From a virus (taxonomy: Duplodnaviria; Caudoviricetes), in IMG/VR virus record IMGVR_UViG_3300044267_002854, positions 1 through 51,764 of that record: 51,764 nt of DNA. One strand, written 5' to 3'. Below, one piece after another: positions 18,880-40,444 of the stretch; positions within the stretch are counted from its first letter, which is position 1; each line of letters starts with the position of its first letter. The notes under the pieces are model-generated. The model was not told the origin of the DNA. It saw nothing but the letters and a program-made list of their open reading frames with translations, and did no database searches. Both the position numbers and the translations under genes were made by a program.

Positions 18880-19183
18880 AACAGTAAAAGAAGACGAGCG
18901 ATATCTCGTTGAAGACAACACACACCTAAAGACCATGGTTGTGAGTAAAACAACCCTAAAGCCTGAGAAAGAAACCACAGGACATTTCCACGAAGGACAG
19001 GAAGAAGTTTATTTATTTGTTAAGGGTAGGGGTGTACTAGAAACACACACCGAACTCATACAGGTGGTTGAAGGAGACGTCGTAGTCATAGACGATGGAG
19101 ATTTTCATAAGGTTTCTAATACATCAGACACAGTAGACCTAGAGTTTATTTGTGTGTTTCCAGGAGAACGCTATGAACATTGA
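18854..19183 (+). CDS. cupin-domain protein
   Basis: GHFHEGQEEVYLFVKGRG...GDVVVIDDGDFHKV. Confidence 0.85.
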   Translation: MLNITNLFKTVKEDERYLVEDNTHLKTMVVSKTTLKPEKETTGHFHEGQEEVYLFVKGRGVLETHTELIQVVEGDVVVIDDGDFHKVSNTSDTVDLEFICVFPGERYEH

Positions 19184-19841
19184 GTGGAGTGAAAAGGTTA
19201 ATGGCTTTGTTAGACCAGACACACTAGACGAATACGTTTTTAAAGAAATAAAGCCGTCTTACAAGTGTTTAGAGATATCTCCAGGAGATGTTGTGCTAGA
19301 TGTAGGCGCTAACATTGGAGCATTCACTAAGTATGCCTTAGAGTTAGGTGCAGAAGTTCATGCGTATGAGCCTGAAGAAGAAAACTATTTAATTATGTTA
19401 GAAAACATTAACTCACTTGACGCCATAGCTTATGCTAACAAGAAAGTTTTAACAGAACGGTGTGCGGTGGTGGGTGATGACAGCAAGTCTATTTCCCTGT
19501 ATGTTAACTCTAAGAAAAACAAAGGGCTACACATGACTAGACCAGTTCGTGGTCGTGAAGGGGTAGAGGTAGAGGCAAAAAACTTTGATGAAATAATCAC
19601 ATCAAAGCAACCAAATAAAATAAAGATTGATGTAGAGGGAGGAGAGTACAGCTTTATGCCTACGGTCTTTCCTGATTGTGTAGAGAAATTAGCAATGGAA
19701 CTACACTTTCAATACAACAAAGAGTGGAGAGGCATGGCAGTAAAGATACATGAAGACATGTTGTCGCAAGGCTTTTCCGTAATAAGAGAACCTAAATTCA
19801 CAGGTGGTAATTGGACCACATTAGCGGGGTATTCAAGATGA
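19173..19841 (+). CDS. FkbM-family SAM-dependent methyltransferase
   Basis: VLDVGANIGAF, AYEP, KIDVEGGE. Confidence 0.88.
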   Translation: MNIEWSEKVNGFVRPDTLDEYVFKEIKPSYKCLEISPGDVVLDVGANIGAFTKYALELGAEVHAYEPEEENYLIMLENINSLDAIAYANKKVLTERCAVVGDDSKSISLYVNSKKNKGLHMTRPVRGREGVEVEAKNFDEIITSKQPNKIKIDVEGGEYSFMPTVFPDCVEKLAMELHFQYNKEWRGMAVKIHEDMLSQGFSVIREPKFTGGNWTTLAGYSR

Positions 19842-20596
19842 AAGTATACATTCCAACAAGAGGCAGATCAAAAGACCAAACAACCCTAAAGTTTTTTCCT
19901 GAAGGACTAAAGGATAAAACAATATTAGTCGTAGACCACGACGAGAGAGATCAGTACGATGCTTACCCAAATGTATGGGTAATGCCTGAAGACTTGCCAA
20001 GCGGTATTTCACCAAAGCGAAAATATATTTGTGAGAATAGCGACGATCCTAAGGTGGTCATGCTTGACGACGACATACGCTTTTACATAAGAAAAGCATT
20101 CAACGACTGGCACTTGCGTTATTTAGAACCACACGAGCTACCAGCCATGTTTGGCGTTCTTGATAAGTGGTTAAACGATTATGCGCATTGTGGTGTGAGC
20201 GCTAGGGAAGGAAACAATCGAGTAGAAGACCTTTCCGTAGAGAACACTAGGTATATGCGATTACTCGCCTATAACATGGACATGTTGGACGGGGTAGAAC
20301 TAGGAAGGACTCGGATTATGGAGGACTTTGATGTTAACCTGCAACTATTAAGGAAGGGTAAAAAATCTAAGGTCAGCTATTACTATGCGCAAGGACAAGG
20401 CACCTCTAACGCCGATGGCGGTTGTAGTGAGTGGCGAAACCTAGACGTACAGGCAGAAGGTGCGGAACTATTAGCTTCCCTACACCCTGACTTTGTAAGG
20501 GTGGTTGAAAAGAAAACTAAAGAGGCTTGGGGTGGAGGCACTCGCAAGGACGTAATTGTACAATGGAAGAAGGCATATGCAAGTAGTCAAAGTTAA
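19838..20596 (+). CDS. TET-associated-type (TAGT/GREB1-like) glycosyltransferase
   Basis: N-terminal YIPTRGR, MLDDD (DxD), EDFDVNLQLLRKG, GGCS. Confidence 0.72.
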   Translation: MKVYIPTRGRSKDQTTLKFFPEGLKDKTILVVDHDERDQYDAYPNVWVMPEDLPSGISPKRKYICENSDDPKVVMLDDDIRFYIRKAFNDWHLRYLEPHELPAMFGVLDKWLNDYAHCGVSAREGNNRVEDLSVENTRYMRLLAYNMDMLDGVELGRTRIMEDFDVNLQLLRKGKKSKVSYYYAQGQGTSNADGGCSEWRNLDVQAEGAELLASLHPDFVRVVEKKTKEAWGGGTRKDVIVQWKKAYASSQS

Positions 20597-21647
20597 GAAT
20601 GTAAATCAAGCCCTCCCGTTAGGGATGAGCCTACTATATGAAGACGGAGTTCTTCGTGAGAGTCGAGCAGGAGACGTTATAGAATATCCTGGAGTCGTGG
20701 CGACAGTTTATGAAAAACCCACAGAAAGAGTATTGTTTAGCCCAGAAAGAGACGCTAACCCTTTCTTTCATTTCATAGAAGGTTTATGGATGCTTGACGG
20801 CAGGAACGACGTGGAGAGTATTGCACATTATGTCAAGCGCATGGGTAAGTTTAGCGACGACAGCAAAACACTGCATGGAGCATACGGACATCGATGGCGT
20901 TCGTGGTTTGGCAGAGACCAACTGCTTGAAGTCATAAACCGACTCTCTCTTTTCGAAGAAGACAGACGTGTTGTCCTAACGATGTGGGATCCTGAGAATG
21001 ATTTTACTTGTATGGAAGAAGGTGCTAAAGATGTTCCTTGTAACACTCACGTTTATTTTAAAGTTAGGGACGGCAAACTACACATGACAGTCTGTTGTCG
21101 TAGCAATGATATGATTTGGGGTGCTTACGGTGCTAACGCAGTACACATGTCCATGTTGCAGGAATTTATAGCTAACGCTATCAAAAAACAGGTAGGAACG
21201 TACACACAAATCAGCGACAGTTATCATGCCTATCAAGACGTTTATGCAAACCTACTGGATAAAATTCCTCCCGTAGATGTCTGGAATTTTCATCATGTGT
21301 ACAGCGATCCGTACAAACTAGACACCATACAGGCATATCCTCAGCTACTGTTAACCGACCACGTCAGTTGGTTAGAGACTAATAATCAGTTTCTATCTAC
21401 AGTTTTCGACCACTCGATGGAGCCCGAAGCGATAAAAAAGTGGAACTACCACTCAAACCCAGCAAAAGAAGACCCGTTTTTTGTCAATGTCGCAGAACCT
21501 ATCGCTGTTGCTTGGGAACACTACAAACTGTACAAAGAACTAGGTATAAGGGAAGAGATACAGAAAGCCCTATATGCGCTCAGTCCGTGCTTAGCTGGTG
21601 ATTGGCGCAGAGCCTGCATAGAGTGGATAGAGAGGAGGGCTAATTAA
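20577..21647 (+). CDS. thymidylate synthase homolog, probable dUMP hydroxymethylase
   Basis: Catalytic DVPCN; RSNDMIWGAYGAN (Asn at the pyrimidine-specificity position, so dUMP); SYHAY; gene neighbourhood. Confidence 0.8.
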   Translation: MQVVKVKNVNQALPLGMSLLYEDGVLRESRAGDVIEYPGVVATVYEKPTERVLFSPERDANPFFHFIEGLWMLDGRNDVESIAHYVKRMGKFSDDSKTLHGAYGHRWRSWFGRDQLLEVINRLSLFEEDRRVVLTMWDPENDFTCMEEGAKDVPCNTHVYFKVRDGKLHMTVCCRSNDMIWGAYGANAVHMSMLQEFIANAIKKQVGTYTQISDSYHAYQDVYANLLDKIPPVDVWNFHHVYSDPYKLDTIQAYPQLLLTDHVSWLETNNQFLSTVFDHSMEPEAIKKWNYHSNPAKEDPFFVNVAEPIAVAWEHYKLYKELGIREEIQKALYALSPCLAGDWRRACIEWIERRAN

Positions 21648-21677
21648 ATTTTACCGAAAAATTTTGTAAGAAAGTAA

Positions 21678-22367
21678 ATGAGTAATCAAGACACAATAAA
21701 CCGATGGTCGCATAGCCGTTTAGGAACTTATGAAAGTTGCCCTAAAAAAGCATTTTTCAGATACATAGAACACGTACCTGAGGAACAACACCCTGCTGCA
21801 GAGCGTGGTATTAAGATACACAACCTAGCAGAACAATATATAAAGGGGGAACTAAGTGAGATGCCTAGAGAACTATATCTCTTCTACGAGGGTTTTGAAC
21901 AGCTAAGAGAAGCATACGAGGAGGGTGACGTCTCTGTAGAGGAACAGTGGGCTTTTAACTTGAGTTGGGAAAAAGCAGATTGGGACGGTGAGGACACTTG
22001 GGGTAGATACGTTATTGATGCTTTTGTTAAACAGGGCGATAACGCTAGAGTTATTGACTTTAAAACAGGTAGGTTCAAAGATAAAAATGAAGGATATAAG
22101 AACCAGTGTTCTTTATATGCCTGTTGTGTGTTTAACCGCTTCCCTGAAATACAGAATATAGAAACAGAGTTGTGGTATCTAGACCACCATAAAATAACTC
22201 GTTATCGCTTTAGTAGAGAAGACTTGAGCGATATACAAGAAAATTTTCACAACAGGGCACTAACCATGACCACAGACACAGAGTTTAAAACAGCACCATC
22301 TGAGTTTGCTTGTCGTTGGTGTTCTTTTACTAATATTTGTAAGGATAATTTTTATGCGAGATCTTAA
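21678..22367 (+). CDS. PD-(D/E)XK nuclease (Cas4/RecB-like exonuclease)
   Basis: SHSRLGTYESCPKK, IDA..VIDFKTG, C-terminal CRWC...C. Confidence 0.85.
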   Translation: MSNQDTINRWSHSRLGTYESCPKKAFFRYIEHVPEEQHPAAERGIKIHNLAEQYIKGELSEMPRELYLFYEGFEQLREAYEEGDVSVEEQWAFNLSWEKADWDGEDTWGRYVIDAFVKQGDNARVIDFKTGRFKDKNEGYKNQCSLYACCVFNRFPEIQNIETELWYLDHHKITRYRFSREDLSDIQENFHNRALTMTTDTEFKTAPSEFACRWCSFTNICKDNFYARS

Positions 22368-22854
22368 TTCTTTATATAAGGTCATGGACAGCGGAGACGT
22401 TAAGCGTTATCACACAGTCGCAACACTAGGGGAGCAAACTAACGCTACTCACTGTTGGGGTGTGGCGGTTATTGCACTGTATCTATACCCAGAGATCGAT
22501 AAAGGTCTTTTATTGAACACACTACTGCATGACGTTGGTGAAATAGACACAGGAGATATACCTGCTACTGTTAAGTGGGCTAATCCAGAATTAAAACACA
22601 GACTAGATGCTATCGAAGACAAGTTGATGCAGGAACTGGGAATAGACTACAAAATAACAACTAAAGAGAAAAAGATACTGAAACAAGCAGACATGTTTGA
22701 ACTACTCTTCTTTTGTTTAAAGCAAAGAAAACTAGGTAATAGACATGTTGGTCGTATTTTCGGCAACGGGGTTGAAAAGTTGTCCGATGGAAATTTAAAC
22801 GGTCGGGGTGAAAAACTACTGGCTAATTTAGTAACACTATATGGAGAGATATAA
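22354..22854 (+). CDS. HD-domain 5'-deoxynucleotidase (YfbR-like)
   Basis: RYH..QTNATH, LLHDVGEIDTGDIP, KQADMFE. Confidence 0.82.
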   Translation: MRDLNSLYKVMDSGDVKRYHTVATLGEQTNATHCWGVAVIALYLYPEIDKGLLLNTLLHDVGEIDTGDIPATVKWANPELKHRLDAIEDKLMQELGIDYKITTKEKKILKQADMFELLFFCLKQRKLGNRHVGRIFGNGVEKLSDGNLNGRGEKLLANLVTLYGEI

Positions 22855-25080: not shown

Positions 25081-25397
25081 AAGGAATAGATGAGTCAAGT
25101 GCTTCGTTTCATAGAGACAGAAACTCAAAAATCTACTATGAGTACACGAACACAAAACAAACACTGGAACAACTTGCTGATAAGTACGGAGTCACGAAAC
25201 AGAGAGTTTGGCAGATTGTCAGGCGCTGTGAGATGGGTTCTGGAGACTATTACAAAGGTTTTGAAAACTATAGAGATAAACAAGATTCCCTAAAAGAACT
25301 AGGGATCCCTGAGGAGCAGATGCATAAACTTCTTCGTAAGTGGATGAGCGAAAAGTTTGATATCAAGACTATAGCTCTCAAGAATGAAGGAGAATAA
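25077..25397 (+). CDS. HTH DNA-binding protein (sigma region-4-like)
   Basis: TLEQLADKYGVTKQRVWQIV. Confidence 0.75.
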   Translation: MKGIDESSASFHRDRNSKIYYEYTNTKQTLEQLADKYGVTKQRVWQIVRRCEMGSGDYYKGFENYRDKQDSLKELGIPEEQMHKLLRKWMSEKFDIKTIALKNEGE

Positions 25398-25770
25398 TCT
25401 CTGGCAAAGCCTTAAAAGAAATCTTTCAAAGCCACTTTGGCAACGTATAGAAACAGGAGGCACAGGAAGAGGTATCCCAGATGTTTTTGGCGCATATGAC
25501 GGGGCTTGTTGCTGGGTAGAGCTAAAAGTAGCTAAAGGAAACAAAGTTCTTTTAAGACCTGAACAGGTTGCTTGGCTTATAAAATTCGGTCAAACTGGGC
25601 TTCCTACCTATATACTAGTAGGTACTGATAAAAGAAAAATGTATCTTTTTTCAGGACTAGAGGCAATAATTGTAAAAGACGAAGGTTTAAAAGCAGAACC
25701 ATTGTTGTTGTTAACTGCTCCTTACGATTGGGAAAAACTTCAAGAGGTGTTATTTTCTCAGAAGAAATAG
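25384..25770 (+). CDS. VRR-NUC/Holliday junction resolvase-like nuclease
   Basis: GIPDV...WVELKV...RPEQVAW. Confidence 0.8.
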   Translation: MKENNLWQSLKRNLSKPLWQRIETGGTGRGIPDVFGAYDGACCWVELKVAKGNKVLLRPEQVAWLIKFGQTGLPTYILVGTDKRKMYLFSGLEAIIVKDEGLKAEPLLLLTAPYDWEKLQEVLFSQKK

Positions 25771-25973
25771 ACATTGAAGAAATAATGACGCTGTACTCAA
25801 TGTATAGAGAAGACTCGGACATGATGTTGCAAATTGTTCTTTTCGCACTAAACCGATACCCCAGTGAAATAGAAAAAGGACTAGGGATTACAGAACAGTA
25901 TAGAGAGCGATTAGAGCACGTAGCTGTTAAAATGCTTGCCCCCGAAATTCCTGAGTCGAAAAACCTAAACTAA
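25728..25973 (+). CDS. hypothetical protein
   Basis: ORF ending just before the next promoter; start uncertain. Confidence 0.5.
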   Translation: MGKTSRGVIFSEEIDIEEIMTLYSMYREDSDMMLQIVLFALNRYPSEIEKGLGITEQYRERLEHVAVKMLAPEIPESKNLN

Positions 25974-25981
25974 CAGACTCC

Positions 25982-26010
25982 TTTACTTTTTTAATAAACC
26001 CTTATATCAT
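25982..26010 (+). promoter_or_regulatory. promoter TTTACT-N17-TATCAT
   Basis: Recurrent motif. Confidence 0.7.
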
Positions 26011-26016
26011 AAGGGT

Positions 26017-26649
26017 ATGTATTATTTTAGTAATTATTTAACAGACGAGCAACTCGAAGCAGAAGAAAGCAAGGGTCTTTGCCCCGTATGTAAAAAGAAC
26101 CAAATAAAAGGCACACAAATAAAATATTGTAGTGCTGAGTGCAGAATACTTTCCCACTATAGTCGTAATTTTCCACCCCAAGAACCTGTAGATAGAAACT
26201 GTGTTGAGTGTGGTGTTGAGTTTACAGGAACAGGGTTCTACTGTTCCGAAAAATGTGATCAACAAAACAAACTAAAGAGGCATCAAAATCCCTTTAGTGA
26301 GTATGGAACTAAAGGTAATAAAAAACAGAAGAAAGAAAAACATAAGAAAGAAGCACGATATGGTCTAGGCGACCCTACATGGATGCACGGCAGTTTTATA
26401 GGCAACATACCTGACAATGTTCGATACATTGTTGCTTCAATACCCGACGAACCTTACACGCAGGAAGACATGCAAGAAATCGATAAAATAATAATCGAAG
26501 AACTCTCCCCCGTAAGAGCAGAAAGAGTTAGATATCGAAGATCAGAGAAACAAGCTACAGAGCACAGAAAACAAAAAGCTCGGAAAGCCATAGGCTGGGA
26601 AAAAGGCTTGAAGTTCGACTATAAGAAAAGAAGATTCTTAAAAAGTTGA
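26017..26649 (+). CDS. Cys-rich Zn-binding hypothetical protein
   Basis: CPVC..YCSAEC, CVEC..YCSEKC. Confidence 0.7.
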   Translation: MYYFSNYLTDEQLEAEESKGLCPVCKKNQIKGTQIKYCSAECRILSHYSRNFPPQEPVDRNCVECGVEFTGTGFYCSEKCDQQNKLKRHQNPFSEYGTKGNKKQKKEKHKKEARYGLGDPTWMHGSFIGNIPDNVRYIVASIPDEPYTQEDMQEIDKIIIEELSPVRAERVRYRRSEKQATEHRKQKARKAIGWEKGLKFDYKKRRFLKS

Positions 26650-26716
26650 ACTCGTTTACTTTGTACCTAATCTAAGTAAACTATATACCTACCTAATTTT
26701 AATAAAGGAGAACGTT

Positions 26717-27082
26717 GTGAAAACAAAAGAACTCAAGAAGCTCATGAAAGAGTGGAAAAAACGACCTGGAGAAATGTCTTTAGTAATAAAAGGCACTAAT
26801 TTAGGAGACAAAATACGCTGGATGACTTGGCGAGACCAACACGAAGCTATTCTACCCTTAAATAACGTCAAGGGTAAGCGCCCCAGCTACGAAGACTTTA
26901 TAGAACTACTGTCGAATGTAAGTATACAGTACTACCCCGACGATGCGATACGGGAAGACGGAAAGCATCTTGACTCGGAAGTCTGGAAGCTGGAACTAAC
27001 AGCTATAAAACAAGAGCCACAAAAATATTTTAAAAGCCATGGGGGATCAACAGCCTTCAAGCCTCAAGAGGAAACAGAATGA
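26717..27082 (+). CDS. hypothetical protein
   Basis: AAGGAG RBS with GTG start; promoter at 26655. Confidence 0.7.
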   Translation: MKTKELKKLMKEWKKRPGEMSLVIKGTNLGDKIRWMTWRDQHEAILPLNNVKGKRPSYEDFIELLSNVSIQYYPDDAIREDGKHLDSEVWKLELTAIKQEPQKYFKSHGGSTAFKPQEETE

Positions 27083-27372
27083 AGTTTGACCAGAGGCTAC
27101 TCTGGACAGAAGACGACGACGAAGGATTAGAAGAAATTTTGGCTCTTGCTAGGGTCATTTCTAAAATCTGTGAAGTCACCATAAAAAATCTAGATATGGA
27201 AAAAGAATTAATTCCTCCTGCTTTGTTGTTTTGTGCAGTTTCTGAACTACTGGGCTATGCCGACGTAGATTCACAAGACCTAATGAAAGATGAAGAATTA
27301 AAACGTCAAATGAAAGTTATCCTCGATGCTGCGTTTAGAGTCATGCGAGGACAACCACTAGCATTAAATTGA
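27079..27372 (+). CDS. hypothetical protein
   Basis: ATGA overlap. Confidence 0.65.
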   Translation: MKFDQRLLWTEDDDEGLEEILALARVISKICEVTIKNLDMEKELIPPALLFCAVSELLGYADVDSQDLMKDEELKRQMKVILDAAFRVMRGQPLALN

Positions 27373-27438
27373 TGTTCCTTTACCTTCAAGTAAAGCGGTT
27401 ATATGCTAGTTTAATACTTATTATAAAGGAGAAAGCAA

Positions 27439-27708
27439 ATGGTATTAAATCCAGAAACAGCCTCATATTCGCAGTACATAGCGTATGAAATACAGGGCTT
27501 ACTAAAAAAATGTATTGACAAAGCACAAATAAAACACCACTTTTTTGCAACACCTCAAGAGCCATTGATTGGCGAGGTTGGTCATGTTGATGACTCAAAG
27601 TCTGATTGGGTAAGTGGACCATTCATTAAAGAAATATACGTCAAGGACGTCTACGGAAAGTCTTATAAAATCACTATAGAAGACTGGAAGGAAGACGTTG
27701 ATGTTTAA
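27439..27708 (+). CDS. hypothetical protein
   Basis: Promoter TTTACC-N17-TATGCT at 27379; AAGGAG RBS. Confidence 0.7.
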   Translation: MVLNPETASYSQYIAYEIQGLLKKCIDKAQIKHHFFATPQEPLIGEVGHVDDSKSDWVSGPFIKEIYVKDVYGKSYKITIEDWKEDVDV

Positions 27709-27847
27709 TCTACTAGGTCGACTTATCTATTTTTTGGTGACAGCGTTTTGTGTTTGCATCTTTTTAATAGAAGTTATCTTTTAGATTGTCCTTTACTTTA
27801 GGGTTTTTCAGTTTTACTATAATAGTAGTTAATAATAAGTGAATATT

Positions 27848-28015
27848 ATGGCACACGACGAGATGAATTTTATAAAGCAACCCAAGCATGGTCGCTCCAA
27901 GATAGAAACTCACGAGCAAGGCGAAATACGAATGCTGACTCGTAAGGTCTATGAGCTGACCGTAGAGAACGGTACGCTTAAACAAAAAATAGCAAAACTT
28001 AAAGCGACAAGGTAG
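27848..28015 (+). CDS. small hypothetical protein (55 aa)
   Basis: Behind the promoter at 27792; MAHDEMNFIKQPKHG...KIAKLKATR*. Confidence 0.55.
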   Translation: MAHDEMNFIKQPKHGRSKIETHEQGEIRMLTRKVYELTVENGTLKQKIAKLKATR

Positions 28016-28051
28016 ATTTTACGTTAGTTCACCTTTAACTACCTTGTTGCT

Positions 28052-28096
28052 GGTATGCGGTGGTTTTTTACTTTATCATTTTTCACTACCGCATAC
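28052..28096 (+). terminator. stem-loop
   Basis: GTATGCGGTGG...CTACCGCATAC. Confidence 0.5.
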
Positions 28097-28150
28097 TCCT
28101 TTACTTTCTAATTTTTATTAGTTATCCTTAATTTTTATAGGGTATTTATT

Positions 28151-28675
28151 ATGAACATATTTATATTAGATGACAATCCTCGTGCTTGTGCCGAGTACCA
28201 CCTCGACAAGCATGTTGTCAAAATGCCGTTAGAGACTGCACAACTGATTTGTACAGCGCACTGGATTACTCATTTTTTCGGGCACATACCCCAAGCTATC
28301 GACAGCTATGAAACCAAAAAACTACGGGAATACTCTAGCGAGTACGACATTTTTCCGTACAAGCCTGTGATGCCTAATCACCCTTGTTCTATCTGGGTTC
28401 GTAGCTCTATGCAAAATTACATGTATCTCACGGCACTAGGCATAGCACTAGGTCGTGAGTATACACACCGATACAATAGAAAGCATAAGTCTGCTGAGCT
28501 ATTATACGACCTACCCAGTATTAAACTACCTGACGATGGTCTTACAGACTTTGCTCAGGCTATGCCCGACGAGTATCGCAACTCTGACGCAATCACTGCC
28601 TACCGATCGTACTACCGAGGCGACAAAGCATACATCGCTAAGTGGACTAAAAGAGATACGCCATGGTGGTTTTAA
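28151..28675 (+). CDS. pyrimidine-dimer DNA glycosylase-like (DenV-related) protein
   Basis: MNIFILD...DKHVVKMPLETAQL, NHPCSIW, EYTHRY, QAMPDEY, AYRSYY. Confidence 0.8.
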   Translation: MNIFILDDNPRACAEYHLDKHVVKMPLETAQLICTAHWITHFFGHIPQAIDSYETKKLREYSSEYDIFPYKPVMPNHPCSIWVRSSMQNYMYLTALGIALGREYTHRYNRKHKSAELLYDLPSIKLPDDGLTDFAQAMPDEYRNSDAITAYRSYYRGDKAYIAKWTKRDTPWWF

Positions 28676-28743
28676 TCCCCTTTACTTTCTAGTTTACTTT
28701 TTATATGGTATAAGGGTAATTAATTAAATTAACGGAGTATATT

Positions 28744-28941
28744 ATGGACTACGATGAGTGGCAACAAAAAAATACCGACAAGTGGAATCAAATCTTAGAC
28801 GACCTTCGAGAGTCAGGCGAAATAAATATGTTTGGCGCAGTGGGTTGGCTAGTAGATAACTACGGTCTTGAGCGATCAGAAGCAAGTAAGGTTTTTGAGA
28901 ACTGGACTAAAACTTTCGGTGAGCGACATGGAGCCGTTTGA
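28744..28941 (+). CDS. hypothetical protein
   Basis: LDDLRESGEINMFGA motif; promoter at 28681. Confidence 0.75.
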   Translation: MDYDEWQQKNTDKWNQILDDLRESGEINMFGAVGWLVDNYGLERSEASKVFENWTKTFGERHGAV

Positions 28942-29140
28942 AAACATACAAGACCTTGTTCGTGACATGAATAAAGAAATAAAAAGTGGCACGGGCGAGG
29001 TCTACTACACGGACGAGAACGGTGTCAACAAGGAACTTAGCTACGTTGAAGACGTCGGTAATTATAATATCGCTTGTTACGTGGCTGGTCAAGAAGTACC
29101 CGTCGGCTACGTCAATGTTGGAGAGCTTGTAGATGGGTAA
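28928..29140 (+). CDS. hypothetical protein
   Basis: Likely start MEPFEN. Confidence 0.6.
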   Translation: MEPFENIQDLVRDMNKEIKSGTGEVYYTDENGVNKELSYVEDVGNYNIACYVAGQEVPVGYVNVGELVDG

Positions 29141-29309
29141 AATGAAAGCATGGCTACACGAAGTTACAGACTCTTTTTACGACAATGGAGCCAAAGCTAC
29201 CGCAAAAGAGTATAATATCAGTGAACAAGAAGTAATTGATGTTGTTAATACTTGGGAGGGTAATGAACCATGGGAAGCGAAAAAACTAACCGATACGTCG
29301 TCGAAATAG
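29133..29309 (+). CDS. small hypothetical protein (58 aa)
   Basis: Read by hand: MGKMKAWLHEV...; GGAG RBS. Confidence 0.55.
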   Translation: MGKMKAWLHEVTDSFYDNGAKATAKEYNISEQEVIDVVNTWEGNEPWEAKKLTDTSSK

Positions 29310-29473
29310 CAGTACCGACTGTAGAAACTTATGAAGTGGTTTCAGAAATACCGCTAACAAAGGAAGAAATAGTGAAAAGAACACAACACAGAAAGCCTCA
29401 AGATATAAAATACAGCGAGGCTATACCTACTGTTCTTGTCATAGAAGGGGTTATAGAGGATGAAGAAAACTAG
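29270..29473 (+). CDS. hypothetical protein
   Basis: GGAGG RBS. Confidence 0.6.
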   Translation: MGSEKTNRYVVEIAVPTVETYEVVSEIPLTKEEIVKRTQHRKPQDIKYSEAIPTVLVIEGVIEDEEN

Positions 29474-29888
29474 AGGATTTACTTGTGGAGCATTCGACCT
29501 ACTGCATCCTGGGCACCTATATTTCTTCAAAAAAGCAAAACAAAAGTGTGATCATTTAGTTATCGGACTACACACAGACCCAACAATAGACCGCCCCGAC
29601 TCAAAAAACAAGCCATGTGAATCGACCTACGAACGTTGGCTGAGGCTCGACTCAGTGAAGTATGTTGACGAAATTATCCCGTACGATACCGAATCTGATT
29701 TATGGAACTTGTTGCAAATGCTAGACCTAGACTTCAGGTTTTTAGGCGACGACTACAAAAATAAACCATTCACAGGAAAAGAACTGCCCATCAACATAGA
29801 GTACATCAGTAGGGATCATGCTTATTCTTCCAGTGGCTTAAGAAAAAGAATAGCAGAAAACGAACGGTGGCGCAAAGAACCTACATAA
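29460..29888 (+). CDS. cytidylyltransferase (TagD/glycerol-3-phosphate cytidylyltransferase-like)
   Basis: GAFDLLHPGH (HxGH), VDEIIPY, GDDY, YSSSGLR. Confidence 0.88.
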   Translation: MKKTRGFTCGAFDLLHPGHLYFFKKAKQKCDHLVIGLHTDPTIDRPDSKNKPCESTYERWLRLDSVKYVDEIIPYDTESDLWNLLQMLDLDFRFLGDDYKNKPFTGKELPINIEYISRDHAYSSSGLRKRIAENERWRKEPT

Positions 29889-33626: not shown

Positions 33627-34046
33627 ATGAAACAAAAATTTAAAGATGGTTGGGAAATAATACCTGCTGATTCTAAGGCTGGGTTATTCATGGAAGAAGA
33701 CTGGGAGGAAAGACTCTCGCCCATAATAGATAAAGAACAGCAAATTATTTACAATATGCTTAAATTATTTATCCCTGAAGAATACGGCTATTACTTTGAT
33801 GAAATCCACGAGCACGACGAACCTGAAGACATACCTCATGGTGAAGGGGTGTGGCGAACGGTCTATAGTACTCCTCTCGGATTTTATTATAAGGCTGGTG
33901 AATACAACATAATAAATACTGCTTCAACCGAAGAATATATTTACTACGCCATTGGTCTACATGGTTGCAGCCTTCAATCTGCCCTTACTGAATATGTTAG
34001 GGTGCCTAAAGAACAATACTGGGCTAGGAGTTACACCAACGCATGA
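33627..34046 (+). CDS. acidic hypothetical protein
   Basis: GGAG RBS favours a start at 33627. Confidence 0.65.
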   Translation: MKQKFKDGWEIIPADSKAGLFMEEDWEERLSPIIDKEQQIIYNMLKLFIPEEYGYYFDEIHEHDEPEDIPHGEGVWRTVYSTPLGFYYKAGEYNIINTASTEEYIYYAIGLHGCSLQSALTEYVRVPKEQYWARSYTNA

Positions 34047-34330
34047 ACGAACAAGAATATCATAAAAAATACCCCTTTCAAGAGGCTACTAGCGAAGACT
34101 ACGATAAGGAACTAACAACTCAAATAACCTTTAGGTTTCCTGAAGTGTTAAGGAAGCGCATGATGGGCGAGTATCTGGAGTTTTACTACGACGAAGAAAG
34201 TACCTATGTTGAAACTATAGGGGAATGGTCTAATGCGGGTATGTACGTTCTCCGTGGTAAACGGTATTCAGATATGGAACTATATGATTCTGCCGTGGCG
34301 TATTTTGAGCTTCAAATTGATCAAGTTTAG
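34043..34330 (+). CDS. acidic hypothetical protein
   Basis: ATGA overlap. Confidence 0.65.
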   Translation: MNEQEYHKKYPFQEATSEDYDKELTTQITFRFPEVLRKRMMGEYLEFYYDEESTYVETIGEWSNAGMYVLRGKRYSDMELYDSAVAYFELQIDQV

Positions 34331-34386
34331 TATCAAGCCGTTGGGTTTTATAATATAGGGGTAATAAATAATAAAGGGGAACACTT

Positions 34387-35046
34387 ATGAATAAAGAACT
34401 TATAGATACTCGGTTAGTAGCTAAACTCATGAATCAAACCGCTAAAGAATGTGGTATGGTTCGGGTTTATAGTTGTACTGATACTCTTTGGTGGGGTAAG
34501 GTATACGAACTAGAAAAACGGGGCGCTATATATCCTGCGTATAACTATAGAAGGTTGGCTAAATGCTATAATTTTCTAGACGATCGTTTTATAGACGAAC
34601 TCACTAAAAAGGCTAAAGCCGAAGGTTTTGATTTGGCTGATTCCTCACTTAACGCTTATAAACGGAAATCAAAGGTGCGTAATCACTCCTGCCCTAAGTA
34701 TAAAAAGAAACTTAAACACTATTTTGATAACTGGAAGCAGGATAGTAGAATGCCTGTAGCCCGTATTATACCCAATACTGAAAATGCGGTTTACGTTAGG
34801 CTGATCGCCCACTTTAAGAATAAGGTATATTCGGTTAAATCAATAAACCCTGCTTCAAAAATAACTACGGGGATTTGTTATCTGGATATGCCCCGCTTGG
34901 CTGAAATGGTTAATTACTATATAGAAAGTGAACACTGGGAAGAGGTCACCGAAGATTGTACTTTTGAATTAACCCGTATACAAACAGGAAAAAAGGTTAT
35001 ATATACCTACGAAGAACTGCTTAAGTTTTTCGCTGATTCTAAGTAA
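34387..35046 (+). CDS. hypothetical protein
   Basis: 219 aa; promoter TTTAGT-N17-TATAAT at 34326. Confidence 0.75.
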   Translation: MNKELIDTRLVAKLMNQTAKECGMVRVYSCTDTLWWGKVYELEKRGAIYPAYNYRRLAKCYNFLDDRFIDELTKKAKAEGFDLADSSLNAYKRKSKVRNHSCPKYKKKLKHYFDNWKQDSRMPVARIIPNTENAVYVRLIAHFKNKVYSVKSINPASKITTGICYLDMPRLAEMVNYYIESEHWEEVTEDCTFELTRIQTGKKVIYTYEELLKFFADSK

Positions 35047-35233
35047 ACCTGTTCACGCCCCTTTACTTTTCTTGTAAAAGGGCGTTGTTGTTTTTTAACA
35101 ACTGATTCTGCACTGTTCATTGGCTGGGGCAATACCCTAAGGAGGATGGAAGCCCCTGTTGTTAGTGGGCTATTTGCGTATTAGTGTTGGAGAGTGGGAG
35201 AAATGTTTTTAAAAGTTAAATCAAATCGTGTTT

Positions 35234-35336
35234 TAGCCAATAGGGCAATAGTGTTTGAAGTAAGTATTTGAATAATAAGAAGAAATGTTATATTGGCTAG
35301 AGCTATTGGCTGAATATTGCCTAGATTAGCCAATAT
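35234..35336. repeat. second cluster of AGCCAATA/TATTGGCT repeats
   Basis: Six copies or variants at 35234, 35244, 35291, 35302, 35315 and 35327. Confidence 0.7.
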
Positions 35337-35383
35337 AATTGGGTATATTTTGGGTATGTTTTACAAGACGACATGTAAACAGT

Positions 35384-35715
35384 CTCATGGTTCTGGAACC
35401 TCTGTATCCACTGTTGTATACTATAGTTGTTCTGTCTCTTGGAGCTTGGGTCTCCTCTAAGATTCTTCGGCTCCCCGTCCCAAGAGCCAAGAATCTCTTA
35501 CAAGATCGATAAACAAGAAGAAAAAGAGACAGAAACAGAGATCTTCTTCTTGTTCTTCTTGGTTCAAGGACAAGAACCAAGAGCGATAATCGATAATCAT
35601 GAAGAACAAGAACATGAACCATTGCTCTTCTTCTTGTTCTTGCTCCTTGTTCTTCTTCTTGCTCACAAGGGCACGGGCACGGGCTTTTCTTCCTGTTTAT
35701 GTTCTTTATCTTCTT
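35384..35715. repeat. period-3 low-complexity tracts (GAA/CAA/CAT versus TTC/TTG/CTC)
   Basis: For example gaagaacaagaacatgaacc and ttcttcttgttcttgctcc. Confidence 0.8.
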
Positions 35716-35727
35716 TTAGAAAAGGGC

Positions 35728-35756
35728 TTTACTTTCTAGTAGTAAAGGGGTATCAT
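35728..35756 (+). promoter_or_regulatory. promoter TTTACT-N17-TATCAT with CTTTACT/AGTAAAG inverted repeat
   Basis: Recurrent motif. Confidence 0.7.
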
Positions 35757-35806: not shown

Positions 35807-36097
35807 ATGCCACAATTAAGTAAAGCTGAAAAAACCGCAGTTAAGAAGGTCAAGGCTCAAGCTTCTGCTAAAGTAGAAGTTAAGGGTATGGGTGGTTTTC
35901 CTGTTACCGCTACTATTAAAGCTACAGGGAAACAACCAAGAGCTGGGCACAACCAAGATTGGGTTGATGCTTTTGATGGTCTCACCATTGGGGATTTCAT
36001 CGCTATTAAAAATAGTGATAAAATGCTCGGTGGATTTCAACGAGATACATCGGCTCTACGTTACTTCGTCAAGCACGGCTTCGTAACTATAGGGTAA
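35807..36097 (+). CDS. small basic putative DNA-binding protein (paralog of 37248)
   Basis: AAGGTG RBS; FPVTATI...FDGLTIGDFI...LRYFVKHGFVTIG. Confidence 0.75.
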   Translation: MPQLSKAEKTAVKKVKAQASAKVEVKGMGGFPVTATIKATGKQPRAGHNQDWVDAFDGLTIGDFIAIKNSDKMLGGFQRDTSALRYFVKHGFVTIG

Positions 36098-36107
36098 TCC
36101 CAAGAAG

Positions 36108-36138
36108 TCCCTCTTACTTAGGTAAGGGGGATTTTCTC
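36108..36138 (+). terminator. intrinsic terminator
   Basis: TCCCTCTTAC/GTAAGGGGGA stem followed by TTTT. Confidence 0.65.
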
Positions 36139-36141
36139 TAA

Positions 36142-36225
36142 CCGATAATCCCCAAGAACAAGAACACGAACCAAGATTCTTCTTCTTGTTGTTCAGTATA
36201 AGCACAACAAGAAGAACATGAACTC
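36142..36225. repeat. second period-3 GAA/CAA versus TTC/TTG tract
   Basis: cgataat..caagaacaagaacacgaacc..ttcttcttcttgttgttc, similar to 35584-35645. Confidence 0.75.
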
Positions 36226-36233
36226 ACGCTGGG

Positions 36234-36624
36234 TATAATCCACTAGGTCTTCCCTTTACTTTTTACTACTATATAGGGGTATTAATAAACTATAAGGTGA
36301 AATTATGAACTATGTAATAAATGATAAGGTCAAATTAAAGCCTATATCTAAAGGCGCTTCAAGCACTTGGTGGTATGACGAGGAAACTAATGAACTGTAT
36401 AAGTGGTTTCCACCAGCTTACCATGCAGGAACGGGGTATATTAACCGCCCCAGCTCTATTAGAAAGGTCACTGAGTTTAATATTGATAGTATGAATATCC
36501 CTAACTACGTTTTTAAACGAATGAAGACTAAATACTTAGGTTGGTCTTTATAATCCACTAGGTCTTCCCCCTAGTTTTTACTACTATAGTAGGGTAATAA
36601 ATTACTATAAGGTGAAATTATGAA
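36234..36624 (+). repeat. duplicated approx. 75-bp promoter/RBS leader (36234-36309 and 36549-36624)
   Basis: tataatccactaggtcttccc...tttttactactata...actataaggtgaaattatgaa occurs twice. Confidence 0.85.
36305..36553 (+). CDS. hypothetical protein
   Basis: Starts at the end of the duplicated leader. Confidence 0.7.
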   Translation: MNYVINDKVKLKPISKGASSTWWYDEETNELYKWFPPAYHAGTGYINRPSSIRKVTEFNIDSMNIPNYVFKRMKTKYLGWSL

Positions 36625-36952
36625 ATATGTTAATATGTACCGCACCAGCAGGTGCTACGGTGGACCCGAAGAGGGAGGCTGGTGGTATACTCAGGGAGAG
36701 TTCATAAAGTGCTACGGCATGTACTCTTCCAACGGGGATGCTAATTTAAAGGTAAAAAGGCTACAAGAGTCCCTTACTTACGAACCCACCTATCACTCTG
36801 GGTACGGTGATCACGACGGTGTTGACCCTTCAGGTAACGGCGATGATGCCTACCTCATCCCAGGTGGCGCTTGGGGGAAGGACGAAATATCCTTCTTAGT
36901 TGAAGACCATATAGGCGCTAACTTCCCTCGCTACACACCTCGCTACGAGTAA
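36620..36952 (+). CDS. conserved hypothetical protein (YGGPEEGGWWY motif)
   Basis: Starts at the end of the duplicated leader. Confidence 0.75.
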   Translation: MKYVNMYRTSRCYGGPEEGGWWYTQGEFIKCYGMYSSNGDANLKVKRLQESLTYEPTYHSGYGDHDGVDPSGNGDDAYLIPGGAWGKDEISFLVEDHIGANFPRYTPRYE

Positions 36953-36961
36953 TCCCCCGTG

Positions 36962-36997
36962 GCTCATGGTTCTGGTTTACCTTACAGAACCATGAGC
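36962..36997. terminator. perfect 13-bp hairpin
   Basis: GCTCATGGTTCTG-N10-CAGAACCATGAGC; no U tract. Confidence 0.55.
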
Positions 36998-37007
36998 TCT
37001 AAACCTC

Positions 37008-37097
37008 GATAAAGATAAAGATAAACAAAACCAAACCCGAACTCATACTCTTGTTCATGCTCATGTTCTTGTTCATGCTCGCATTCGTGTGTATGTG
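37008..37097. repeat. third period-3/6 tract (GATAAA x3; YTCWTG-type hexamers)
   Basis: gataaagataaagataaac...ctcttgttcatgctcatgttcttgttcatgctc. Confidence 0.8.
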
Positions 37098-37105
37098 GCT
37101 ACCCC

Positions 37106-37194
37106 TTTACTTATAACTAGTAGTTATATAGTTTTACCTTATAACTAAATATTATATTTAAACCCCTTTACTTACCCGTTAAAAAGCGTACTAT
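37106..37194 (+). promoter_or_regulatory. tandem promoters TTTACT-N17-TAGTTT (37106) and TTTACT-N16-TACTAT (37167)
   Basis: Recurrent motif. Confidence 0.6.
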
Positions 37195-37247
37195 TATAGG
37201 TACTATTAAATAATTAAGTTTAATAGCGTAAATAAAGGTAAATAAAA

Positions 37248-37580
37248 ATGGTAAATAAAACTAAAGGTACTAACGCTAACCTTACCGCTAATAGCGTAAC
37301 TATAAACGGTACTAGCTACCCCTTAACCGCTACTATAACCGTAGTTAACGGCGGTACGGTAAACCCTAAAAACGCTTATATATTAAATAGCGTTTATAAC
37401 GGGGCTACCGTAGCTAATATAGTACGGGCTAAAGCTAACCCTAGCGCTAAAGTTAATAACGCTTTAAGTACTAAAGCGTTAGCTAAAGCTAATATTAGTT
37501 TAGGTAGTAGCGCTAGTACCGTTTTAAGTAAAACGGGGTTAGGGTATTTTTTAAAGGGCGGTAAAATAACTATAAGCTAA
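37248..37580 (+). CDS. small basic protein lacking D, E, H, Q, C, W and internal M (paralog of 35807)
   Basis: Has its own promoters, an AAGGT RBS and a terminator; YPLTATI...YNGATVANIV...LGYFLKGGKITIS. Confidence 0.8.
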   Translation: MVNKTKGTNANLTANSVTINGTSYPLTATITVVNGGTVNPKNAYILNSVYNGATVANIVRAKANPSAKVNNALSTKALAKANISLGSSASTVLSKTGLGYFLKGGKITIS

Positions 37581-37597
37581 CCTTTAAACCCTAGCGG

Positions 37598-37634
37598 TAA
37601 GCCCCCTAGCTAATAACTAGGGGGCTTATTTTTT
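37598..37634 (+). terminator. intrinsic terminator
   Basis: TAAGCCCCCTAG-N7-CTAGGGGGCTTA followed by T6. Confidence 0.85.
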
Positions 37635-37860
37635 ATAGGGGCGTAGGGTAGTAAAGGGGTATAAAAGTAAAGGGCTTAAAAGGGCTATAATTAAGCCGTA
37701 GGGGTAGCCCCGCCCCCCTTTATAGCATAACCCTGTAGCTATAGCTAAAGGGTAAGATTTGGAGAGGCATTCACCATGGATTTCGAATTTTTGCAAATTT
37801 CCTTTACTTCTTGTGCAAAATAAGCAAAAATATTTCTTGCAAAATTTTTAGGAGAAAATT

Positions 37861-38023: not shown

Positions 38024-38464
38024 GTGGGCTTCCCATTTGAGATAATAACCATGCTTGGTTCTACTCTGCTGAGTAGTTTATTGAGCATTTGGGCGCAAAG
38101 TCGTAAAGCCAAGGCGGAAGAACAAAAACTCTTGATCACAAGAGGCGAGTTTGACATGAAAGCGAGGAAACAGTCGCTGGATCATGGCTTAAAAGACAAG
38201 GGTTTCGCTTGGACAAGGCGGATTATAGCCCTAACTGCCATATTTGCCATCGTTTTACTGCCAAAACTAGTCGCAGTCTTCTATCCACAGGTCGATGTAA
38301 CAGTAGGGTACACGAATTGGATGCCTGGATTCTGGTTTTTTAAAGAAGGAAGGGAAGTTTTTGAGTGGGTGACGTTTCAGGGGCTTGTTATTACGCAATT
38401 AGACACGAATTTAGTGTCTGCAATCATTGGAATGTACTTTGGCGGGAGTTTAGTTAAGCGATGA
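38024..38464 (+). CDS. membrane protein, putative holin
   Basis: About three hydrophobic segments; C-terminal IIGMYFGGS. Confidence 0.6.
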   Translation: MGFPFEIITMLGSTLLSSLLSIWAQSRKAKAEEQKLLITRGEFDMKARKQSLDHGLKDKGFAWTRRIIALTAIFAIVLLPKLVAVFYPQVDVTVGYTNWMPGFWFFKEGREVFEWVTFQGLVITQLDTNLVSAIIGMYFGGSLVKR

Positions 38465-38934
38465 CAAAGAAAAACAAGGATAAACTGACTCCTAGACAGG
38501 AAAAATTCGCTCAAAGCGTGGCAAAAGGCTTATCCAAGACACAAGCAGCAATCGAAGCAGGATATTCGCCTAAAAATGCGCAAAAAGCGGGTACAGCTCT
38601 AGCCAGTGATCAAAATCCTAAGATAAAAAACAGAATCCAAGCGTTGCAAGACCGTGCAGCCGATTTAGTGAGCGTAAATCTAGGAACACACCTCAACGAT
38701 CTCAAAGATATACGGGATGGAGCAGTTGGAGCAGGAATGTGGTCGGCAGCAGTCGCAGCAGAAGTCGCAAGAGGCAAAGCAGCAGGACTTTATGTAAGAA
38801 AAAGCGAATTAACCATCAATAAAGTCGAAATGATGACTAAAGAGGAGATTTTAGTCAGAATGAACGAACTTTACTACGAATCGGGCGGAGTATTGCCCAA
38901 AGGCGAGATAATTGACGTCCAAACAGATGAATAA
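38461..38934 (+). CDS. terS: terminase small subunit
   Basis: LTPRQEKF..TQAAIEAGYS HTH; immediately upstream of terL. Confidence 0.85.
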   Translation: MTKKNKDKLTPRQEKFAQSVAKGLSKTQAAIEAGYSPKNAQKAGTALASDQNPKIKNRIQALQDRAADLVSVNLGTHLNDLKDIRDGAVGAGMWSAAVAAEVARGKAAGLYVRKSELTINKVEMMTKEEILVRMNELYYESGGVLPKGEIIDVQTDE

Positions 38935-40444
38935 AGACCTCAATAACCTTCCCGAAGATACATTAAAAGAGTATTACGAGCTTACAGAACGGTTCAAAGA
39001 GCTTAGTGAAGTAGAACAGTCGCAAAAAGAGTTTTTATCCTTTGTCAAAAGCCAGTGGCCAAACTTTATAGAAGGTCACCATCATAAAATAGTCGCAGAC
39101 GCTTTTAACCGCATAGCCGACGGCACTTTAAAGCGATTAATCATCAATATGCCTCCAAGACATACAAAAAGTGAGTTTGCGAGTTTTTTACTCCCAGCGT
39201 ACCTAATTGGGCGCAACCCTGCACTTAAAATCATACAAGCAACGCATACATCCGACCTTGCGGTGCGTTTTGGTCGTAAAGTAAGGGATTTAATACAATC
39301 CGACATATATAAACGTATTTTTCCCGATACGATACTAAACCCAGACTCAAAAGCAGCAGGAAAGTGGGAAACCATGGCAGAAAACCAACCGACGATACGA
39401 GGGGAGTATTATGCGGTAGGTACAGGCGGTGCGATCGCTGGACGGGGTGCAGACCTCTTTATTATTGACGATCCGCACTCAGAGCAAGACGCAATGTCAA
39501 AAGCAGCACTGGATGACGCTTATGAGTGGTATACCTCTGGACCAAGGCAAAGACTTCAGCCTGGAGGAGCGATAGTTATCGTTATGACTCGTTGGTCAGT
39601 TAAAGACCTAACAGGGAGATTAATCAAGGATATGTCTCGTAGTTCTCAAAACGATCAGTGGGAAGTCATTGAATTACCAGCTATACTGCCGAGTGGAGAC
39701 GCAGTTTGGCCAGAGTACTGGAAAGTTGAAGAACTGGAAGCAATCAAAGCAGCATTGGGTAATGGACCGAAATGGTTTGCTCAATACATGCAATCGCCGT
39801 CTTCTGAAGAAGGTGCGCTAATTAAACGTGAATGGTGGAAAGAATGGGTAACCGAAAAACCACCCGAGTGCGAATATATTATACAAAGCTACGACACGGC
39901 ATTTTTAAAGTCAGAAACTGCTGACTACTCCGCAATCACAACGTGGGGCGTATTTTACCCGCACGGACGCATAGGCGAAGATTTTTACCAAGGAGACGTT
40001 GCTCATCTCATACTACTGGACTCTGTGAAACAGAGGCTTGAGTTTCCTGAATTAAAGCGCAAAGCACTAGAACTTTATGAGCATTGGGATCCAGACACAG
40101 TAATTATTGAGGCGAAAGGAAGCGGAACGCCTTTAACACAAGAATTAAGGAGAATCGGTATTCCTGTTCAAAACTTTACTCCAAGCAAAGGCGCAGATAA
40201 GGTTGCTCGAGTAAACGCTTGTACACCATTGTTTGAGTCAGGAATGGTCTGGAAGCCCGACATGCACTGGGCGACAGAAGTTGTAGAAGAGTGTGCAGCT
40301 TTCCCTAACGGTGATCACGATGACTTAGTCGACTCAATGACACAAGCAGTTCTGCGTTTCCGCCAAGGTGGATTTGTTCAGTTAGCTTCTGATTATGAAG
40401 ACTCATTTGACGGATATAGACACAGACAAATGGTTTACTATTAA
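38927..40444 (+). CDS. terL: terminase large subunit
   Basis: INMPPRHTKS, IIDDP, MTRW, QSYDTAF, HDDLVDS. Confidence 0.95.
   Translation: MNKDLNNLPEDTLKEYYELTERFKELSEVEQSQKEFLSFVKSQWPNFIEGHHHKIVADAFNRIADGTLKRLIINMPPRHTKSEFASFLLPAYLIGRNPALKIIQATHTSDLAVRFGRKVRDLIQSDIYKRIFPDTILNPDSKAAGKWETMAENQPTIRGEYYAVGTGGAIAGRGADLFIIDDPHSEQDAMSKAALDDAYEWYTSGPRQRLQPGGAIVIVMTRWSVKDLTGRLIKDMSRSSQNDQWEVIELPAILPSGDAVWPEYWKVEELEAIKAALGNGPKWFAQYMQSPSSEEGALIKREWWKEWVTEKPPECEYIIQSYDTAFLKSETADYSAITTWGVFYPHGRIGEDFYQGDVAHLILLDSVKQRLEFPELKRKALELYEHWDPDTVIIEAKGSGTPLTQELRRIGIPVQNFTPSKGADKVARVNACTPLFESGMVWKPDMHWATEVVEECAAFPNGDHDDLVDSMTQAVLRFRQGGFVQLASDYEDSFDGYRHRQMVYY

Follow-up and report, generated by a model that had tools for sequence, protein, structure and literature searches.

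A block free of TG and TC in a marine podovirus genome, read as a gene cassette probably purged of the phage's own thymine-modification sites

The window analyzed here, a stretch of 51,764 nucleotides from a Caudoviricetes genome, contains a block of 630 bp (37097-37726) from which a class of dinucleotides has been almost completely removed. When "TS" is used for TG or TC read on either strand (the steps TG, TC, CA, and GA), the block includes a single TS step, the TG of an ATG start codon, against 146 expected from composition. The banned set includes the reverse complement of each of its members and no other step, and the ban reaches the untranscribed flanks; the constraint acts on double-stranded DNA, and its target is exactly TS. 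These steps are very probably the modification sites of the phage itself, because the banned set is the published context of thymine hypermodification and a matching gene cluster is present in the window. We lean towards the explanation that the block is a modification-free cassette, the first to be transcribed by host RNA polymerase, and that it encodes a basic, probably DNA-binding factor.

The TS-free block and the genes P1 and P2

The features around the two genes concerned, P1 and P2, are as follows.

35542..35665, no strand: TS-dense (TSN)n tracts in both orientations, upstream of P1 (sequence)
35728..35756, + strand: predicted P1 promoter, TTTACT, 17 nt, TATCAT (promoter scan)
35807..36097, + strand: P1, the normal copy, 96 aa, basic (pI 9.9), member of an unnamed multi-copy phage domain family (independent profile, E 1e-9, 97% probability; AlphaFold)
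36104..36135, + strand: predicted P1 terminator hairpin (-20 kcal/mol; uncalled by the terminator scan)
36152..36221, no strand: TS-dense (TSN)n tracts downstream of P1 (sequence)
36963..36996, no strand: hairpin, its left arm repeated at 35384 (not conserved in distant loci)
37049..37096, + strand: TS-dense tract of 11 TSN units, immediately to the left of the block (sequence)
37097..37726, no strand: TS-free block, spanning upstream region, promoter, gene, terminator, and about 95 bp further
37167..37194, + strand: predicted P2 promoter, TTTACT, 16 nt, TACTAT, both hexamers TS-free (read by eye; the consensus scan did not report it)
37248..37580, + strand: P2, the TS-free copy, 110 aa, pI 10.4, without D, E, H, Q, C, W, or internal M (homologues and dN/dS)
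37596..37630, + strand: predicted intrinsic P2 terminator, 14-bp stem and T run (scan and folding)

The block consists of clean stretches at 37097-37249 (153 bp) and 37250-37726 (477 bp), the TG of the start codon being the sole exception, and the second-longest TS-free run anywhere in the window is 47 bp. The upstream region of about 150 bp and the 95 bp past the terminator are as TS-free as the P2 gene. The gene was located within a TS-free block at 17/17 metagenome loci, where the block covered 125-160 bp upstream and 359-516 bp counted from the ATG. UV-dimer avoidance was rejected as a cause since TT steps are kept in the block, and so was targeting of the DarT type, which acts on TC, since TG is banned as well. 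General palindrome avoidance was also rejected, because TS-free palindromes are plentiful in the block (GTAC 8, AGCT 7, and CTAG 7).

The TS ban forbids the codons for D, E, H, Q, C, W, and M. In an initial annotation of this DNA, open reading frames had been placed at 35807 and 37248, where both were found again, and the product of the latter had been described as lacking D, E, H, Q, C, W, and internal M and as using only AGY codons for Ser. Direct reading of 37248-37580 gave the same result, with Ser encoded by AGT (5) and AGC (6) alone. The check on homologues proposed at that time extended it to relatives: all of the 12 P2 protein homologues (47-95% identity) lack the same residues, in line with the 17 loci in TS-free blocks mentioned above. 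At 15/15 loci, the P2 coding sequence contained exactly one TS step, the ATG, and the frame was intact, with length changes in frame and with conserved motifs, ribosome-binding site, and terminator. The dN/dS among P2 sequences ranged from 0.28 to 0.94 and was below 1 in 18/18 pairs, despite the restricted choice of synonymous codons. From the one TS step in each sequence, the in-frame length changes, and the dN/dS values, the P2 gene is very likely real and the constraint old. RNA runs, represented by contigs only, gave no contig over P2 and one contig of 178 bp (depth 2.8) on P1, and are uninformative either way.

The block might instead be a cis-acting terminal, packaging, or origin element, the open reading frame being incidental or decaying. 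Such an element would agree with the facts that the removal of TG alone removes TGA stops, that the AlphaFold model of P2 is unreliable (pLDDT 36.6), and that dN/dS reaches 0.8-0.94 in some pairs. It is scarcely credible, however, in view of the single long open frame in the block, the maintenance of this frame and its signals under dN/dS below 1, and the retention of TS at conserved H and D codons in partly purged copies (in nearly purged copies, 30 of the 48 remaining TS steps are forced by D, E, H, or Q codons, notably those for conserved H and D).

P1 and P2 had been proposed to align in three blocks. All three were recovered by BLASTP (19/88 identical, E 0.012), the D-to-N and H-to-G changes being present within them, and the profile comparison that had been suggested gave 60.9% probability and E 8e-5 over 67 columns by hhalign, with a profile-profile score exceeding 137/137 column-shuffled controls. 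The P1 and P2 HMMs were reciprocal best non-self matches (E 0.0015 and 0.0017; first unrelated matches 2.3 and 0.88). When 6335 ORFs were searched with a profile seeded by normal copies alone, P2 was detected at E 0.0093; one further round brought the family to a total of 51 members, with a gap from E 5e-4 to 3.5. These comparisons support the homology of P1 and P2. Against a family profile from which the subfamilies of P1 and P2 had been left out, P1 matched at E 1e-9 with 97% probability; the match of P2 was weak (E 0.36, with 2/1000 shuffles as high), and its profile-profile comparison with the same independent profile gave 8% probability over 19 C-terminal columns, above 159/159 shuffles. 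In a tree of 51 rows and 68 columns, poorly resolved and with long-branch warnings, P1 and P2 were not sisters. The two genes had been interpreted as a duplicated unit with one copy under a DNA-level constraint; the homology and the DNA-level rewriting of the protein stand, but direct duplication is less certain, neither the tree nor the weak P2 profile match supporting it. P1 and P2 are thus regarded as paralogues within a multi-copy family, of which 1-5 copies are found per genome where it is present. At one locus (L021), a purged copy is present, but the stretch from the polymerase gene to the block includes no normal copy.

The common architecture claimed for both genes was confirmed, with some limits. 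The 12-mer CTCATGGTTCTG is located at 35384 and 36963 but is absent from 5/8 related loci checked; TCGATAAA plus a tract is located at 35506 and 37006, but GATAA-led tracts occur in further copies too and are not private to the pair; and the TTTACT box precedes both genes but is found at 16 intergenic sites. The terminators were borne out by stable hairpins 3' of both P1 and P2. The period-3 tracts noted earlier turned out to be the most TS-dense DNA of the window, its most TS-dense 120 bp starting at 35525, and in 11/14 records a family copy is located no more than 1 kb from the 120 bp with the highest TS density in the genome. The presence of TS-dense tracts near the purged block indicates that TS content is selected both ways around the cassette. 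At 15 other TTTACT promoters, TS O/E was 0.60 versus 0.96 in AT-matched windows, to which the promoter consensus may contribute. Counts of TTTACT versus TTGACA across genomes gave no clean split of records with the modification cluster from those free of it. Since the separation is not clean and TTTAC-type -35 boxes are known from T4 early promoters, the argument from TTTACT counts is weak.

Thymine-modification genes and the occurrence of the block in relatives

The genome is assigned to the HTVC023P-type podoviruses by its capsid protein (65-72% identical to those of HTVC023P, HTVC027P, 023Pt_psg01, and DSL-LC04), its terminase (TerL 55-61% identical to those of the three HTVC023P-type phages tested), and its gene order. 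The predicted modification cluster sits between the helicase gene and polA, and a cluster of this kind has already been reported in HTVC023P-type phages (PMC9599517).

18049..18879, + strand: protein of the aGPT-Pplase / amino acid:DNA transferase family, homologue of M6 gp55 (PF18723, E 3e-48; 41% identity to M6 gp55)
19173..20596, + strand: FkbM-type methyltransferase and TAGT-family glycosyltransferase (PF05050, PF20691; phrog_842)
20577..22854, + strand: thymidylate-synthase-family protein (likely dUMP hydroxymethylase), PD-(D/E)XK nuclease, and HD 5'-deoxynucleotidase (homology to M6 gp58 and PhiJL001 gp24)
38461..40444, + strand: terminase small and large subunits, to the right of the block (profile match)

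By homology only, the dUMP hydroxymethylase homologue and the aGPT-Pplase/AADT of the 5-hmU pathway are thus both present. Known thymidine hypermodification pathways employ a 5-hmU DNA kinase (PMC5889632). A search of 21 records, several of them complete, detected no kinase like M6 gp54 at E up to 1, and a divergent or host kinase is conceivable instead. Hypermodified T is located at TG/TC in M6, ViI, and phiW-14 (PMC6449724) and mainly at TG in phage 15599 (PMC13458397). Because no gp54-like kinase was detected and the modification is read from the sequence signature together with the literature, its chemistry, as well as its specificity for TS, is inferred here.

Relatives were chosen among 436 viral loci with a match to the aGPT gene, of which the best 80 were taken; 30 records were searched and 20 of the longer ones analyzed, a purged block being defined as a 250-bp window with TS O/E of at most 0.11. 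Among the cluster-bearing records (the genomes compared are related, so that the counts are not independent events), the protein family was found in 18/20 and a purged block in 8/20, and the purged blocks of the 20 records were located about 1-3.5 kb upstream of terL. Neither the family nor the block was found in the cluster-free relatives (0/6 each, one covered over 36 kb and one over 40 of 44 kb) or in HTVC023P-clade loci with at least 3.5 kb upstream of terL (0/29 each, with 51 shorter loci left out); loci near the TerL of the window, again with at least 3.5 kb upstream, included the block in 16/27. The sharpest control is G048, in which the capsid protein is 97.7% and TerL 87.5% identical and the cluster, the block, and the family are all absent. 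Absence of the cluster was checked locally in G035, G045, and G048, with G002 as a positive control.

The block is not obligatory, since it is missing from M6 and PhiJL001, where the longest TS-free runs are 37 and 19 bp and no long block exists, and from G019, a complete genome with the full cluster and three family copies. G003, with an aGPT gene and a different glycosyltransferase, has neither the family nor the block. The distribution altogether supports the view that the constraint tracks the thymine-modification cluster of the phage.

Genome position, strand asymmetry, and competing explanations

The position of the block was examined with contig depths and contig ends.

35400..37752, no strand: likely direct terminal repeat, left edge somewhere in 35050-35420 and right edge at about 37752 (depth and ends of contigs)

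In five runs, contigs were about 1.4-2.5 times deeper over about 35.4-37.8 kb, most clearly (twofold) in run X13, with a depth of 152-165 versus about 80-110, X17 being too shallow to judge; no depth spike restricted to the TS-free block was seen in the contig depths. The base matching 37752 was the end of 3/16 related contigs (two by blastn and one by eye). These contigs suggest a direct terminal repeat that contains P1 as well as P2 and has the block at its right-hand end, and the raised depth could also arise from segments shared by co-occurring strains. In lambda and P22, packaging proceeds in the direction of terS and terL; if it runs in that direction here, the block end would be packaged last and enter the host first.

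Purging is a graded property, the orthologues ranging from 0 to about 16 TS per 100 bp, and a normal copy is usually found at a distance of 0.5-1.5 kb from a purged one. In the poorly resolved tree, both purged and less purged copies are present in three supported clades, a mixture that suggests repeated origins of purging. The strands were then compared with the amino-acid sequence fixed and with the codon usage of each genome as the null. Avoidable CA and GA, i.e., TS with T on the template strand, were rarer than TG and TC in 21 of the 22 terL-proximal copies with unequal values (pooled O/E 0.49 and 0.52 versus 0.88 and 1.40 even in copies with at least 9 TS per 100 bp); by the same comparison, template-strand TS was rarer in 5/16 capsid genes. 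Short family copies far from terL showed no template-strand deficit, and neighboring early genes had near-normal TS. Normal copies beside the block were about twofold short of template-strand TS, a shortage suggesting that they are early genes too, rather than the later-expressed backup put forward in the initial annotation. Three purged copies (G012, G018, and G023) are without an ATG, GTG, or TTG start, and in G018 and G023 an ATT stands at the position of the orthologues' ATG, behind a purine-rich site. At L306, and likewise at L303, L305, L307, and L308, the purged 250 bp cover just the upstream region of a normal family gene.

Since CA and GA are lost first from the coding strand, the template bias might be considered an RNA effect, caused by selection of the mRNA against a host or phage ribonuclease cutting CA, GA, UG, and UC. 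It is very improbable, however, that a ribonuclease is responsible: the 150 bp upstream and the 95 bp past the terminator are equally clean, the five loci just described are purged upstream of a normal gene, reverse complementation leaves the banned set exactly as it is, and the pattern goes together with genes for DNA modification.

In the explanation that we favor, thymine would be hypermodified at TS and the modified base would hinder host RNA polymerase. Provided that TS is the modification site, the cost is likely paid in transcription, mostly via template-strand T and promoters. The cassette, which is fairly probably located at the genome end entering first, would be transcribed as one unit at full speed from the incoming virion DNA; because the thymines at TG/TC are likely decorated, one modification-free gene would be needed for the first reading by host RNA polymerase. 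Bulky major-groove groups block bacterial RNA polymerase in vitro, probably at initiation (PMC4838386). Since the inhibition is placed at initiation, the purged coding region is not explained by inhibition alone. Also in vitro, 5hmU enhances transcription and glucosyl-hmC still permits it (PMC11550810), and the effects of thymine hypermodification on transcription remain to be studied (PMC6449724).

The main rival is that the first-entering DNA is kept free of modified T for evasion of modification-dependent nucleases or sensors, and that the encoded protein inhibits such defense, as do the T4 GmrSD inhibitors and anti-END1. END nucleases indeed target thymine-hypermodified Yuaviruses, and small phage inhibitors of them exist (PMC12191111); avoidance of motifs in the leading region decides the outcome of restriction in Autographiviridae (PMC12455610); and both the likely terminal position of the cassette and its co-occurrence with the modification cluster are as this rival would have them. 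A nuclease should see both strands alike, yet the depletion follows the template strand. Moreover, the block is bordered by TS-dense tracts, in G004, G007, G016, and G023 DNA rich in TS separates it from the boundary motif on the terL side, internal promoters are TS-poor as well, and the loss of ATG is more easily explained by transcription or initiation. We therefore consider evasion of nucleases unlikely.

It is also improbable that the terminal segment escapes post-replicative modification and for this reason must lack the sites of a TS-cutting nuclease, either of host restriction or of the phage itself. Although the block reaches the likely right terminus and a PD-(D/E)XK nuclease is encoded within the cluster region, G048 keeps the nuclease without having a block, the TS-free palindromes GTAC, AGCT, and CTAG are common in the block, the depletion is asymmetric between the strands, and TS-rich DNA is found nearer to the boundary in other lineages.

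Protein function and comparison with known systems

Both P1 (pI 9.9) and P2 (pI 10.4, without D or E) are basic. The AlphaFold model of P1 (mean pLDDT 71) showed weak similarity to many winged-helix chains (VIA Z at most 4.6, rmsd about 3, 55-63 aligned), and Foldseek with this model gave nothing at E 0.001. No usable name for P1 or P2 was obtained in Pfam, PHROGs, and PDB-sequence searches (best PHROG E 0.0055), the ESM Atlas gave unnamed viral clusters or nothing, and tblastn with P1 or a family member against cultured phages gave no match save PhiJL001 gp18. The domain corresponds to the C-terminal domain of gp18 (95.5%, E 1.6e-8), which is encoded directly before the aGPT-Pplase gene of PhiJL001, and in G028 the domain directly precedes the TAGT gene. 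The most economical inference for the family is a DNA-binding role tied to the modification, and P2 may be considered a small basic, probably DNA-binding bootstrap factor, which would assist the expression of the rest of the genome in its modified state. The anti-defense role suggested in the initial annotation is excluded in the form of an acidic DNA mimic: mimics of the Ocr/Arn type have a strongly acidic surface, and P2, unlike the early anti-restriction protein Ocr, is without acidic residues.

The family could conceivably read modified-T tracts such as those flanking the cassette and act on transcription, the normal paralogue adding to the supply once modified DNA has become readable, a proposal that we make with reserve. 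More speculative is a reading in which an epigenetic landscape is laid down in dinucleotide content, the cassette, situated at the end entering first and flanked by the most heavily modifiable tracts of the genome, encoding a reader of hypermodified T that licenses host RNA polymerase; the protein would then have been rebuilt repeatedly from 13 amino acids plus the initiator, with ATG swapped for ATT. If the modification-free cassette is as we propose, it would explain how the unmodified host polymerase comes to transcribe the first genes of a phage whose DNA is hypermodified, and would allow the sequence context of an unknown base modification to be read from the genome sequence alone. It would also offer a candidate reader domain for modified thymine. 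An abundant lineage of marine phages would, moreover, provide a natural example of proteins evolving with ever fewer kinds of amino acid, until D, E, H, Q, C, and W are all gone.

In a full-text literature search (little subscription material, supplements excluded), no phage gene purged of the phage's own modification sites was found described. The accessible parts of the papers on thymidine hypermodification (PMC5889632, PMC6449724, PMC13458397, and PMC9599517) describe no modification-free gene, and those of PMC5977210 and PMC8989533 hold nothing on modification-purged phage genes.

As in the window, a thymidylate-synthase homologue, an aGPT-Pplase, and a 5'-deoxynucleotidase are encoded beside polA in M6/YuA, ViI, phiW-14, and SH-Ab 15599 (PMC5889632, PMC6449724, and PMC13458397), and the dinucleotides banned in the window are the TG/TC context reported for thymidine hypermodification. 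Unlike M6, the window is without a gp54-like kinase and includes a TAGT glycosyltransferase, and M6 is without the purged cassette. PhiJL001 gp18 shares the domain family in its C-terminal domain, but is a two-domain protein encoded in normal DNA of a genome without a TS-free block. The T4 GmrSD inhibitors and anti-END1 (PMC12191111) are small proteins acting at entry, as P2 would be. Base J with the J-binding proteins of kinetoplastids, and TF1 of SPO1, would resemble the present case in that a 5-hmU-derived base shapes transcription, with reader proteins and with dense modified tracts at transcription boundaries; the likeness is one of concept, and the pattern here would be written in dinucleotide content. 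Site avoidance in first-injected DNA is found in T7 and T5. For the sites of host restriction enzymes, avoidance in the DNA injected first has been described (PMC12455610), and in the leading region of Murciavirus, described in the same paper, a likely leading or terminal region with small early genes is likewise purged of a motif. Unlike Murciavirus, where the motif is a host restriction site, the motif here is a class of dinucleotides, apparently the phage's own modification target, and the purge changes the protein itself, has a template-strand bias, and may extend to loss of the ATG.

Allele differences and start codons of purged copies

In comparison with window 36300-37760, the loci L005, L017 and L025 carry near-identical flanks around an allele of P2, the gene purged of TG and TC dinucleotides on either strand (TS-free), that is just 52-56% identical. 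Such near-identical flanks around a divergent allele suggest that alleles of the P2 cassette have been swapped.

Purged family copies of the related phages G018, G023 and G012 lack an ATG, GTG or TTG start, and in two lineages of this set the ATG of the orthologues is aligned with ATT. Copies of this kind would be missed or mis-started by gene callers.

L158:11263-11514, minus strand, purged copy of G018
L174:4952-5227, minus strand, purged copy of G023
L130:19524-19742, plus strand, purged copy of G012

TS-free upstream region and terL-side boundary

At L306:3460-3710, about 250 bp located 5' of a normal family gene are TS-free, the gene itself being unpurged, and the same lineage layout was found in L303-L305, L307 and L308.

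At the terL-side boundary, a conserved C-run followed by TTA is located at 37703-37722 of the window, where it stops some 30-45 bp short of the likely terminus, with matching sites in G002, G004, G005, G007, G015, G016, G019, G022 and G023; this motif is a candidate packaging or end signal. Beyond the terminator, two CCCTTTACT boxes on the minus strand (37650-37681) point back into the block, and are possible leftward promoter or binding sites.

Modification clusters, repeats and composition elsewhere

A kinase of the type of gp54 of the hypermodified phage M6 was not detectable in the thymine-modification cluster of the window (18049-22854) and 20 related records, though aGPT-Pplase is present. 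In the aGPT cluster of G003 (24727-29414), which may direct a different thymine modification, a dUTPase-like ORF and one for a protein of 445 aa take the place of the glycosyltransferase TAGT (both ORFs judged by eye); G003 carries neither a family copy nor a TS-free block.

Coding-strand CA is scarce (observed/expected 0.59 and 0.43) in the two early genes that immediately precede the likely terminal repeat (window 34043-35046). A long Pro-Thr repeat lies at 2700-3050 within a 561-aa ORF (2023-3708), and G028, a distant modification-cluster phage, contains a cluster of six long (NSA)n tracts (22007-22540). In M6, the two longest TS-free runs (3489-3525 and 29642-29677) are near-identical TAAG-repeat elements, one upstream of terS and the other upstream of the helicase gene.
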